This document shows positions 43,758 to 46,421 of a stretch of 64,000 nucleotides of DNA, piece by piece (within the stretch, counting starts at the first letter, position 1; every line of letters begins with the position of its first letter). Both the position numbers and the translations under genes were made by a program. The stretch is from assembly GCF_057098645.1 (NCBI RefSeq), contig NZ_CM169472.1. One strand, 5' to 3'. The notes below the pieces were generated by a model. That model was not told where the DNA came from. It was given only the letters and a program-made list of their open reading frames with translations, and ran no database searches.

Positions 43758-44211
43758 GCAGCAAATCCGGCAGGTCTGCCGCCAGTGCATGGACCGCTGC
43801 CGGGCGGGTGAAACATGGCCTCCGGACCTGGCTGAGTTTGTGGCACTGATTTCGAAAAGCGGAGCCAATCCATTCGGTCTGACGGTGGATGCTGTGATGG
43901 AGGAGTACCGCCGCTGGCGCAATGAGTCCTGGCGATACGACGGAAGTGATAAGTACCCGTGGTCTCAGCCTGTGCTGTATCACATTTGCCTCGAGATGCG
44001 TTCAAAGGGGATTGAGCGCCAGATGACCGAAGGGGAATTAAAACGGCTTGCAGAACGGCAACTGACGAAATGGGCAAAGCATGTTAGTAACGGCCTGAGC
44101 GTTCCGCCAGTCCGGCGACAACTGGCGGCCCCCAAACGCCCGTCGGGGCCAACGCCAATTGAGTTGCTGAAACAGGAATATGAACGCCGGAAAGCGGCTG
44201 GTTTTGTATGA
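43546..44211 (+). CDS. replication protein P-like (helicase loader)
   Basis: Alignable by eye to lambda P as recalled (W..KNG...MTEQQ...PPDLAEFVAL...YPW); start uncertain (43546, 43669 or 43750); the frame overlaps the 3' end of the O-like gene. Confidence 0.55.
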   Translation: MQQHQVAPHHGQFRKFGQHVSSGNVKTDLSATETAWKLWELMGEVYSNRWTQKNGAAPSKLWIAQIGAMTEQQIRQVCRQCMDRCRAGETWPPDLAEFVALISKSGANPFGLTVDAVMEEYRRWRNESWRYDGSDKYPWSQPVLYHICLEMRSKGIERQMTEGELKRLAERQLTKWAKHVSNGLSVPPVRRQLAAPKRPSGPTPIELLKQEYERRKAAGFV

Positions 44212-44663
44212 ATTGTGAAGGTGATATTTCAGGAGGGCTTGTGGCAAGACCTTACACACAAGAAGAGCGGGAAAAGCTGAAGGCGGACATTGTAGCTTTC
44301 GTGCGTATGAGTGGGCGGGCAACGCTTCAGCAACTGGCGAATGAAACGGGCGTTGCCATGCGTACTGTTCGGTGTTTATGTGGAAGCCTTGCTGGCAGTG
44401 GAGATATCTGGCTATCTGGTTACGGGGTGTTTTCATCAGAGCAGGCGCGTAAAGACTGGCAAAACGCCCGCAAAAAACTTTCAAGGGCAAAGGCGAAGAA
44501 ACCGGTTGTAGTTGATCCGGACCTTATCTGGTCGTTACCAGACGGAGAAATACGCCGATACGACAGGCGTCAGAACATAATCTGTCGCGAGTGCCGGAAG
44601 AGTGAAGCTATGCAGCGTGTACTGGCTTTCTATCAGGGTAATTTTCATGAGACGGTACTGTGA
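44208..44663 (+). CDS. hypothetical phage protein with possible HTH
   Basis: 151-aa ORF overlapping the P-like stop (ATGA); segment ATLQQLANETGVAMRTVRCL looks HTH-like. Confidence 0.5.
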   Translation: MNCEGDISGGLVARPYTQEEREKLKADIVAFVRMSGRATLQQLANETGVAMRTVRCLCGSLAGSGDIWLSGYGVFSSEQARKDWQNARKKLSRAKAKKPVVVDPDLIWSLPDGEIRRYDRRQNIICRECRKSEAMQRVLAFYQGNFHETVL

Positions 44664-44720
44664 GTGAAATTAGCTATCAGGCTTCAATTACCGCTGGCAT
44701 TCGCATCAAAGGAGAGGAGC

Positions 44721-45077
44721 ATGGAAATAAAACCAGAAGATGAGTTAAGCAATATCGTTTTATTTCCGGTAAAAGAGGATGACCCACGTAATCAGGTTAA
44801 TTTTCTCTATGAGCCATCGGAAAGACCATATTGCCATCACGCCTCTGTCCGGGTTGACGAAAAAGAGCGTCAGGTCCGCTGTAAAATCTGCGGTGCAGTT
44901 GTGGAGCCATTTGACTGGATGCTCTCTGTGGCGAAAAGAGAAACCAGACTGGCAGATGATGTAAGGATCTTGCGCCAGGAGGAACGGGAAAGGCGGAGAA
45001 ATATAGAAAAGCTAATTCAGATTGAGCGTAACGTGAAAGCGCGGATACGCAGGGTGACAAAATCCAGAACTGAATAA
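44721..45077 (+). CDS. hypothetical protein with Cys/His cluster and basic C-terminus
   Basis: MEIKPEDELSNIVLFPV...YCHHASVRVDEKERQVRCKICGAV...; SD-like gaggag upstream. Confidence 0.5.
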   Translation: MEIKPEDELSNIVLFPVKEDDPRNQVNFLYEPSERPYCHHASVRVDEKERQVRCKICGAVVEPFDWMLSVAKRETRLADDVRILRQEERERRRNIEKLIQIERNVKARIRRVTKSRTE

Positions 45078-45125
45078 TTAATTTTAGCTCTGTTAAAAAT
45101 TTAATCCTTAACCGGAGGTATATCA

Positions 45126-45338
45126 ATGTCAAACGCACAGAAAGTTATTAACGCTGAAAAATATAACGAGTGGGTGAAAAAGTTCTCAGAGCAGATTTTT
45201 AAAATTACTGGCGACGAGAATGCGGCAAAAAATGAATTAGAGCCGTGGACGCCTGAAGGTGTCGACCCAAATTATTGCTGGTGGGATGTTGATCCAGTTG
45301 ATGCTGCAAATGAAGCTATGAGTTATCACAACGATTAA
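45126..45338 (+). CDS. hypothetical small acidic protein
   Basis: 70-aa ORF with SD ggaggt 7 nt upstream; followed by a GAAA-loop hairpin. Confidence 0.5.
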   Translation: MSNAQKVINAEKYNEWVKKFSEQIFKITGDENAAKNELEPWTPEGVDPNYCWWDVDPVDAANEAMSYHND

Positions 45339-45373
45339 TGTCAGGAGGCCGCCCGAAAGGGCGGTAATGAAAA

Positions 45374-46207
45374 GTGACTGAATTAACCAAAGAGAAATTA
45401 ATCGAAGAAGCCAAATTAAAAATAGCGATTGCGAAATGCTACCCCAATTCAGGGATGGCACGGGTAGAGGGCGAGTTATTCAAAATTGCACTGGCATCGC
45501 TGGAAGCAGAACCAATAGGTGCTTTCCACATTGTAGAACAGCAAGTTGACGGAACAAGTTACTATATCAAGGATGGGGAATGGCCTATTGATACTGGGAT
45601 TATTGAAGTCTACGCCGCCTCACCGATGACGGTAGTGCTGAACGATGTATCTGGACCTCTTGCTCTTGCTTACAAAGAGCTTACACCTGCGATTATGCGC
45701 AACCATATCGCTGTATTCGAACGATACGGAATAACCCCAAACGATAGCATTACTACAATTCATGCGCTTCGAATTGCGCTGGATGGCATAGAGCGGAGCG
45801 ACGCCATGCTTCATGGACGTCAGCCATGCCATCAAATTACCGCCTCAATGGCAAAAGCTATTGCGCTTAAACTTGGTGCCGAACTGAATAACGAAGAAGC
45901 AGAGATTTTCGCGGATGGGTATAACACCGCCATGCTTCATGCCGAAAACTTTCGGGAAAATAAGAATTCGTCAACCAATAATTTTCGGATAACCTCGGAA
46001 ACGTCAACCAACTCTCCGGCAATCCCTGATGAGGTGTTGTCCGCAATCCTGAAGGTCGCCAGGGTTCGTGCAGATTTCGATGCTTCTGAAGGTGACAGGC
46101 GAGGTATCGGTGGTTGTCTGGATGAGGCCGAGCAAGAACTTATCGTTACCATTAACAAATACGCCAGTCAGATCGCAGTAGAAGCGATACAGGGGGCGCA
46201 CCAATGA
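45374..46207 (+). CDS. hypothetical protein (277 aa), no family recognised
   Basis: GTG start; uninterrupted 277-codon frame with coding-like composition. Confidence 0.5.
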   Translation: MTELTKEKLIEEAKLKIAIAKCYPNSGMARVEGELFKIALASLEAEPIGAFHIVEQQVDGTSYYIKDGEWPIDTGIIEVYAASPMTVVLNDVSGPLALAYKELTPAIMRNHIAVFERYGITPNDSITTIHALRIALDGIERSDAMLHGRQPCHQITASMAKAIALKLGAELNNEEAEIFADGYNTAMLHAENFRENKNSSTNNFRITSETSTNSPAIPDEVLSAILKVARVRADFDASEGDRRGIGGCLDEAEQELIVTINKYASQIAVEAIQGAHQ

Positions 46208-46316
46208 GCCGGCCCGATGCATTTGCAGGCGTTGCTATAGCTATTGCTTTTCTAGTATATGTTATTTGTCGGTGGGGGTAAAAACGTTCGCCGGAATTCA
46301 CACCAAGGGAGGGAAT

Positions 46317-46421
46317 ATGTCGGATGATATTTCACTGGTAATGGAAGGCGCTCTGGCTGTTATTGCTGTTGTGGGTGTTTACTGCCTGGTTGTGTTTTTG
46401 ATGGATCGCCTGGGGAACTGA
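46317..46421 (+). CDS. small hydrophobic peptide (34 aa)
   Basis: Strong SD AAGGGAGGG 5 nt upstream of ATG; product MSDDISLVMEGALAVIAVVGVYCLVVFLMDRLGN is a single predicted transmembrane helix. Confidence 0.35.
   Translation: MSDDISLVMEGALAVIAVVGVYCLVVFLMDRLGN

Follow-up and report, generated by a model that had tools for sequence, protein, structure and literature searches.

The question raised by this locus is whether a run of small open reading frames (ORFs) in a lambdoid prophage works as one system, possibly in defence, or is a collection of accessory genes that move independently. The run occupies positions 44208-46421 of a 64,000-nucleotide stretch of DNA (contig NZ_CM169472.1 of NCBI RefSeq assembly GCF_057098645.1), which we call the window. 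It lies between the replication genes and hokD; we call it the block, and its reading frames ORF1 to ORF5, with a further ORF of 25 codons between ORF4 and ORF5. An earlier note, made from the letters of the window, had placed the block at the nin-equivalent position and had proposed it as a candidate accessory locus, where defence or anti-defence genes gather. The position is indeed non-essential, mosaic and accessory, and the defence part of the proposal gained no support. That is, the block is an ordinary mosaic accessory region of the ren/nin type, with identical or near-identical proteins in RefSeq, all in catalogued families. Our best explanation, to which we give a probability of roughly three in four, is that the block corresponds to the non-essential ren/nin stretch of the early-right (pR) operon in a defective Rac/Qin-like lambdoid prophage of an Escherichia coli O145:H28-like strain, and that it is a patchwork of independent single-gene cassettes and not one coherent system.

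The distribution of the block among genomes supports this explanation. We surveyed 5426 complete E. coli genomes with the 2.2-kb block as the query, and counted the full arrangement as present when at least 80% of the query was matched. Parts of the block were found in 3859 of the 5426 genomes, and at least 80% of it was found in 10. The single genes assort independently. ORF2 occurs without ORF3 at two loci (L004 and L009), and ORF3 directly follows a DUF977 gene, without ORF2, at seven of the eight places sampled (L012-L018), where the common arrangement is DUF977, ORF3, DUF4014, an 87-amino-acid (aa) ORF, a 289-aa DUF551 protein, a 34-aa ORF and hok. ORF2 and ORF3 are also flanked by an Ead/Ea22-like gene on either side in the Shiga toxin (Stx) phage ArgO145, where they lie in the pL region, the pair being 92% identical in Stx phages at this different genomic position, and other Eaa/DUF551 variants precede ORF5 at other loci. 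Since the cassettes assort independently, and since the parts occur in 3859 genomes and the whole in 10, a multi-gene system is disfavoured. Thus the block is accessory DNA, as had been proposed, but it is not co-inherited as a system, because each cassette is found without the others in other prophages.

A short conserved element directly before ORF4 suggests how such cassettes may be joined. This 24-mer, which consists of a Shine-Dalgarno (SD) sequence and a GC-rich hairpin, ends 7 nucleotides (nt) before the ORF4 start codon, and its centroid fold has an energy of -15.5 kcal/mol (z -3.1). It occurs once in the window, where zero copies are expected by chance. The identical 24-mer was found in six loci (L001, L003, L004, L005, L006 and L007), and a one-base variant in L008; the genes that follow it in L003, L004 and L007 are unrelated, and the one in L008 is of the Eaa family. 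The element looks like a cassette boundary and may be a recombination junction. Another possible role is that of a split ribosome-binding site, in which the hairpin brings the SD sequence near the start codon. On our best explanation, the cassettes were strung together by recombination at short conserved junctions, of which this SD-hairpin is probably an example.

The ORFs of the block are genuine genes. The five plus-strand ORFs that the earlier note had listed within 44208-46421 do exist, with three corrections, namely the start of ORF1, the support for the start of ORF4, and a sixth ORF. The ratio of nonsynonymous to synonymous polymorphism (pN/pS) against diverged copies was 0.36-0.50 for ORF1, 0.12-0.18 for ORF2 and 0.12-0.17 for ORF3, indicating purifying selection. 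ORF5 differs from its 90%-identical copy in L007 by six synonymous and two conservative codon changes. Each of ORF1 to ORF4 matches a PHROG family with an E value between 1e-36 and 1e-54. Coding on the minus strand was also considered and was rejected, as none of the six antisense ORFs (71-150 aa) matched any PHROG. The selection values, the pattern of codon changes in ORF5, the PHROG matches and the blank antisense ORFs together led us to regard the ORFs as genes. The features are listed in Table 1.

Table 1. Features of the block and of its surroundings, with positions in the window, strand and the evidence for each.
Feature	Position	Strand	Evidence
IS21-family insertion (istA/istB), 2.6 kb	39624-42258	+	break in BLAST of the window against L001; istA/istB-type ORFs
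Replication protein P gene (flank)	43750-44211	+	RefSeq annotation of L001; stop codon overlaps ATG 44208
ORF1, Ren homologue by sequence matches (DUF977, LygF), 140 aa	44241-44663	+	Pfam, PHROG and BLASTP matches; position; pN/pS
ORF2, phrog_1621, 118 aa	44721-45077	+	PHROG E 1.7e-54; weak Pfam match; alignments; AlphaFold2; pN/pS
ORF3, acidic, 70 aa, pI 4.4	45126-45338	+	phrog_4659 E 3.7e-50; pN/pS 0.12-0.17
Conserved element, putative cassette junction: SD (AGGAGG) and GC-rich hairpin with GAAA loop	45343-45366	+	fold; shared 24-mer
ORF4, Eaa-family, 277 aa, GTG start	45374-46207	+	6589 homologues; alignment; segmental PHROG matches
25-codon ORF, unannotated, putative single-helix hydrophobic peptide MSRPDAFAGVAIAIAFLVYVICRWG	46204-46281	+	ATG overlaps ORF4 stop (ATGA)
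ORF5, putative single-helix membrane peptide, 34 aa	46317-46421	+	RefSeq WP_001278459; strong conserved SD GGGAGGG
hokD/sok type I toxin-antitoxin locus (flank)	46497-46820	+	Rfam sok 105.9 bits; hokD annotation
IS3-family element	47125-48434	-	comparison of the window with L001; ALIL pseudoknot match

The earlier note had been unable to assign any of these ORFs to a known family. Our searches placed ORF1 in the Ren/DUF977 family, ORF4 in the Eaa/DUF551 family, and ORF2 and ORF3 in catalogued PHROG families. It had also named homology of all the ORFs to nin-region proteins or Ren as a finding that would count against its proposal; ORF1 does match Ren, so that this applies in part, and no Nin family (NinB-NinI) stands among the PHROG, Pfam or NCBIfam matches of any ORF. 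NCBIfam gave no match for any of the five ORFs, and sequence searches of the PDB with ORF1 to ORF4, and with an ORF2 profile, gave nothing significant. A literature search on DUF977, LygF, the RefSeq accessions, nin-region defence and Eaa found no functional study of these proteins.

The region of the block is 99.9% identical to a Rac/Qin-like lambdoid prophage in E. coli O145:H28 strains RM12761 and RM13516 and a few other strains. The RM12761 prophage is our locus L001, from which the RefSeq annotation was transferred after mapping of coordinates by BLAST of the window against it. Its gene order is exonuclease, dicB, ydfC, cI-like, cro-like, ydaT, DnaT-like O, P, the block, hokD, DUF968, RusA and Q. 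The same BLAST comparison located an insertion sequence (IS) of the IS21 family within the 5' end of the ydaT-like gene, where 9 bp of target sequence are duplicated. This insertion separates the pR/cro region from O, P and ORF1 to ORF5, and it was found in none of the complete E. coli genomes searched. Downstream of hokD, an IS3-family element stands in for about 2.65 kb of the RM12761 sequence, which comprises two small genes, DUF968, RusA and most of Q. The prophage is therefore defective, being disrupted by the IS21 and IS3 elements and lacking most of Q.

On the plus strand, from the ORF1 start (44208 or 44241) to the ORF5 stop, we found no sigma-70-like promoter and no intrinsic-terminator-like site; the nearest terminator-like site on this strand (44186-44202) belongs to the 3' end of P, immediately before the block. 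In lambda, cro-cII-O-P-ren is transcribed from pR (PMC3640518). Because the block has no internal promoter-like or terminator-like site, and because of this precedent in lambda, it would most simply be co-transcribed from pR as an extension of the early-right operon.

ORF1 matches Pfam DUF977 (PF06163) with an E value of 1.9e-30 over model positions 2-133 of 134. It also matches phrog_142, 'Ren-like exclusion protein', with an E value of 3.2e-39, and lambda Ren matches the same family with an E value of 1.6e-41. BLASTP of ORF1 against lambda Ren aligned a C-terminal motif with 60% identity over 20 aa (NIICRECRKSEAMQRVLAFY with NLVFKECRQSAAMKRVLAVY), and ORF1 occupies the slot directly after the replication gene P, as ren does in lambda. 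In phage records this protein goes by LygF, a name used for Rac-like phages, or by Ren-like exclusion protein. Judging from these matches, ORF1 is a homologue of lambda Ren with a predicted winged helix, the fold that has been predicted for DUF977 (PMC2686095). As for its start codon, GTG 44241 is likelier than ATG 44208, because an AGGAGG SD sequence precedes it, because it is the RefSeq start in RM12761, and because the DUF977 and phrog_142 matches begin there. ATG 44208, which would give a protein of 151 aa (44208-44663), lies 30 nt before the GTG and, in the sequence ATGA, shares nucleotides with the stop codon of P, the same kind of overlap that links P and ren in lambda; for this reason it may still serve as the start. 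Ren reportedly renders lambda insensitive to Rex exclusion, as Toothman and Herskowitz are said to have found in 1980. By analogy, ORF1 would most likely protect an induced or infecting phage from Rex-type exclusion, or modulate early development in some other way. At other loci, DUF1627 replaces or precedes ORF1.

ORF2 is preceded by a strong SD sequence, and three parts can be told apart in its product: a disordered N-terminus, in which an ELSNVVxFP motif is conserved; a zinc ribbon of the form CxH...CxxC; and a helix of 55 residues that is rich in Arg and Glu. The Cys/His cluster that the earlier note had pointed out in this protein proved to be genuine and conserved: among 21 homologues of 46-92% identity, C38, H40, C54 and C57 are invariant, as are the N-terminal ExELSNxxxFP motif and much of the basic C-terminal segment. 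The AlphaFold2 model, with a predicted local distance difference test score (pLDDT) of 72, has a disordered N-terminus, two ribbon hairpins (43-54) and a helix (63-117). Residues 36-73 match Pfam Zn_Ribbon_TF weakly (E 2.6e-4), and Foldseek of the model against PDB and BFVD gave no match at E<=0.001. We also considered membership in the DksA/TraR family, to which lambda Orf73 belongs, and rejected it: the family is absent from the Pfam matches at E<=10, and the domain order differs too, the ribbon preceding the helix in the ORF2 model.

A profile search with ORF2 collected 1364 representative clusters at E<=1e-3. The homologues, all named hypothetical, come from prophages of Escherichia, Shigella, Salmonella, Kluyvera, Erwinia, Pluralibacter, Yersinia and Morganella. 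The distant relatives that were tested also belong to phrog_1621, and NCBIfam gave only sub-cutoff coiled-coil noise for them. One relative has a methyltransferase gene on one side and RusA on the other in a further lambdoid prophage, and others adjoin NinG or Ead/Ea22-like genes in Klebsiella and Enterobacter phages. Four homologues (P0125, P0160, P0161 and P0163) are called as fusions that carry an Ead_Ea22 (PF13935) or DUF977 (PF06163) portion at the N-terminus; these fusions could be genuine, or could be gene-calling read-through at cassette junctions.

ORF3 has no Pfam match and no PDB sequence match. Its 120 homologues are all at least 70% identical, are confined to Escherichia and Shigella, and are all named hypothetical. 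Homologues of ORF2 and ORF3 are found in some cases in the pL operon (exo-xis-like) and in others in the pR operon (nin-like). From their architecture, the two would probably be small early proteins that bind host or phage macromolecules.

Support for the GTG start of ORF4 comes from the L008 prophage, where the homologous start codon is an ATG. The protein has 6589 relatives, with 45-93% identity over 80-98% of ORF4; they are mostly named 'DUF551 domain-containing protein' or 'Eaa protein', and most of them carry PF04448. The alignment shows that this family is strongly modular, with the conserved junction peptides ALASLEAEP, NFRENxNSSTNNFR..ETSTNSP and PVTPDGWISCSERMP. ORF4, in which the earlier note saw no recognisable motif, carries the N-terminal and central modules of the family, and ends where its relatives begin PVTPDGWISCSERMP...WMPLPEPPQE, that is, where they go on into DUF551. 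It has no Pfam match even at E<=10, and so does not contain DUF551 (PF04448). Its last 8 or so codons align with the last codons of DUF551 genes, and this match at the 3' end points to loss of the DUF551 domain from ORF4 by in-frame deletion. The same DUF551-less terminus ends a 187-aa protein, intact according to RefSeq, in an O157:H7-type prophage; the form seen in ORF4 is thus a recurrent variant and not a private truncation. The 277-aa protein itself is stored at NCBI as a cluster of 52 sequences.

In the RefSeq annotation made by PGAP, only 45920-46207, the last 96 codons of ORF4, is annotated, as a pseudogene of a 'DUF551 domain-containing protein, missing N-terminus' (L001, L005 and L006). 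Because ORF4 is without the DUF551 domain and its N-terminus is not truncated, this call looks like an annotation artefact of the mosaicism of the family. For ORF4 the name 'DUF551 domain-containing' is therefore incorrect, and the pseudogene call is doubtful. An AlphaFold2 model of ORF4 (40-sequence alignment) had a mean pLDDT of 47, was confident at residues 1-44 only, and was too poor for use. The idea that ORF4 is an Ea22 homologue was rejected, since neither a match to Ead_Ea22 (PF13935) nor BLASTP similarity to either of the two Ead/Ea22-like proteins of ArgO145 was found. As context, and not as evidence on ORF4, Ea22, which favours lysogeny, is mosaic as well, and DUF551 is present in one Stx variant of it (PMC10834534). 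From its architecture, ORF4 would be an Eaa-family scaffold protein minus the DUF551 end domain.

The 25-codon ORF was overlooked both by RefSeq and by the earlier note. It is open, with the same ATGA overlap, in 12 of the 12 copies examined, whichever upstream gene is present, and it has two alleles of 25 and 27 codons, an in-frame 6-nt indel apart. From this conservation it is likely to encode a micro-protein. The very strong SD sequence that had been noted before the 34-aa single-helix peptide, ORF5, was confirmed as GGGAGGG and is conserved. The ORF5 region was present in 671 of the 5426 genomes at a coverage of at least 80%, and every locus seen with ORF5 has an Eaa/DUF551-type gene before it and hokD after it. 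A tblastn search of phage genomes with ORF5 gave no match, possibly owing to low-complexity masking. Judged by architecture, both peptides would be inner-membrane micro-proteins. ORF5 was also considered as a component of the hok/sok RNA locus; the sok match begins at 46497, after ORF5, and many genomes match the hok leader only.

Several other explanations were weighed against the patchwork of cassettes. The one that deserves most attention, although we regard it as unlikely, is that ORF4, perhaps along with the rest of the block, is leftover DNA decaying in a dead prophage, ORF4 being a pseudogene as PGAP has it. The partial annotation, the missing DUF551 domain, the poor AlphaFold2 model, and the breakage of the prophage by IS21 and IS3 with loss of most of Q all agree with decay. 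Yet the 277-codon frame of ORF4 is intact and identical at a locus whose neighbour genes have diverged, ORF1 to ORF3 are under clear purifying selection, and the recurrence of the DUF551-less terminus in the O157:H7-type prophage and the NCBI cluster of 52 sequences also speak against it. We think it quite unlikely that some uncharacterised cassette is an early host-takeover or counter-defence factor; ORF2 would be the best candidate, because the large phrog_1621 family recurs in the early pL or pR operons of temperate Enterobacterales phages. On this reading nucleic acid or a host protein could be the target of its zinc ribbon and Arg-rich helix, and the invariant ExELSNVVxFP motif near its N-terminus could be a docking site for a host factor. 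The two conserved micro-peptides upstream of hok would be further candidates, as unrecognised peptides that act on membranes in exclusion or as toxins. It is distinctly improbable, in our judgement, that ORF2 and ORF3 form a two-gene module, of a zinc-ribbon protein and an acidic partner, that moves jointly between the pL and pR operons. The two are adjacent in the same order, with a spacing of about 48 nt, in the window, L001, L003, L005, L006, L007 and L019, and the pair recurs in the Stx phages elsewhere in the genome. Against this, each gene occurs without the other at the loci given above, and the ORF2 family, with its 1364 clusters from several genera, is broader than that of ORF3, which is limited to Escherichia and Shigella.

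It is very improbable that ORF5, the 25-aa peptide or both are toxic membrane peptides of a type I-like system, or belong functionally to hokD. Both are short and hydrophobic, with a single helix and a strong SD sequence, and lie immediately 5' of hok/sok, and hok follows ORF5 in every locus seen to bear it. But the sok/hok RNA match starts only past ORF5, many genomes match the hok-leader part of the query and not ORF5, and no antisense RNA family or promoter was detected over the two peptides. As far as we know those toxins, Hok, Ldr and TisB also differ from these peptides, whose N-terminus is acidic and whose C-terminus is not basic. The least credible explanation, which we consider remote, is that the five ORFs work together as a single defence or anti-defence system. 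They lie on one strand with tight spacing and good ribosome-binding sites, the position is known to gather accessory genes, and Ren, the relative of ORF1, is established as countering Rex exclusion. However, a search of PADLOC-DB 2.0 with all the ORFs gave only two matches (mad1 and Cmr5), both sub-threshold with an E value of 0.02 and over short stretches; no enzymatic or sensor domain was detected in any ORF; and the genes assort independently among prophages, the whole arrangement being found in 10 genomes and parts of it in 3859.

The patchwork of early cassettes, which we prefer, has points against it too. The IS21-family insertion lies between pR and the block, so that transcription here may be reduced or abolished. 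The functions given for ORF2 to ORF5 are read from architecture only; the ORF2 fold search gave no significant match, nor did the PDB searches with ORF1 to ORF4 and the ORF2 profile. ORF2 and ORF3 are adjacent in seven loci seen, and a loose functional pairing is possible. To our knowledge, no mechanism is known for Ren, and so the label 'Ren-like' says little on the biochemistry of ORF1.

As a discovery the block matters little, since it is a textbook mosaic early region of lambdoid prophages, and what novelty is left rests with the phrog_1621 family and with the two micro-peptides. The useful outcomes are that ORF1 is to be read as a Ren homologue, on the matches described, and that a conserved 25-codon ORF for a putative membrane peptide has gone unannotated. 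The phrog_1621 family of early genes is large and well conserved, and its zinc-ribbon/helix architecture is clear; it would be a sensible choice for screens of phage accessory genes.

Some further observations concern the right flank. The hokD gene itself is at 46665-46820 and the sok RNA family match at 46497-46667. A sub-threshold isrK-like match (46829-46910) lies directly 3' of hok. The IS3-family element contains an ALIL frameshift pseudoknot, and the same element is present elsewhere in the RM12761 prophage in reversed orientation. On the 3' side of the truncated Q region are a small RNA (sRNA) gene, STnc100 (49365-49554, plus strand, 148 bits), and the anti-GcvB sRNA AgvB (49555-49616, minus strand, 96.5 bits).

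Finally, we compared the block and its products with known systems. ORF1 shares with lambda Ren its PHROG, the C-terminal CRECRxSxAMxRVLAxY motif and the place after P in the pR operon, but it is longer (140-151 aa against 96 aa), carries an insert and has low overall identity. ORF2 resembles TFIIB-type zinc ribbons in its weak Zn_Ribbon_TF match and in its top Foldseek match, a non-significant one to the TFIIB N-terminal ribbon; its ligands are CxH...CxxC and not C4, and a 55-residue basic helix follows the ribbon. ORF4 has the N-terminal helical module, the ALASLEAEP junction, the NFRENxNSSTNNFR linker and the DEAEQELIVTINKYASQ module of the Eaa/DUF551 proteins of lambdoid and P22-like phages, and a mosaic, domain-swapping architecture like that described for Ea22 variants (PMC10834534). 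Unlike the Eaa/DUF551 and Ead/Ea22 proteins, it is without DUF551 and PF13935, and it lies in the pR and not the pL operon. The block as a whole differs from the lambda nin and exo-xis regions in that NinB, C, D, E, F, G, H, I, Orf60a, Orf61, Orf63 and Orf73 are all absent here. It nevertheless resembles them as a non-essential, apparently early-transcribed and highly mosaic run of small genes with conserved junction sequences at their bounds, and the relatives of ORF2 adjoin NinG, RusA or Ead/Ea22-like genes in other phages.

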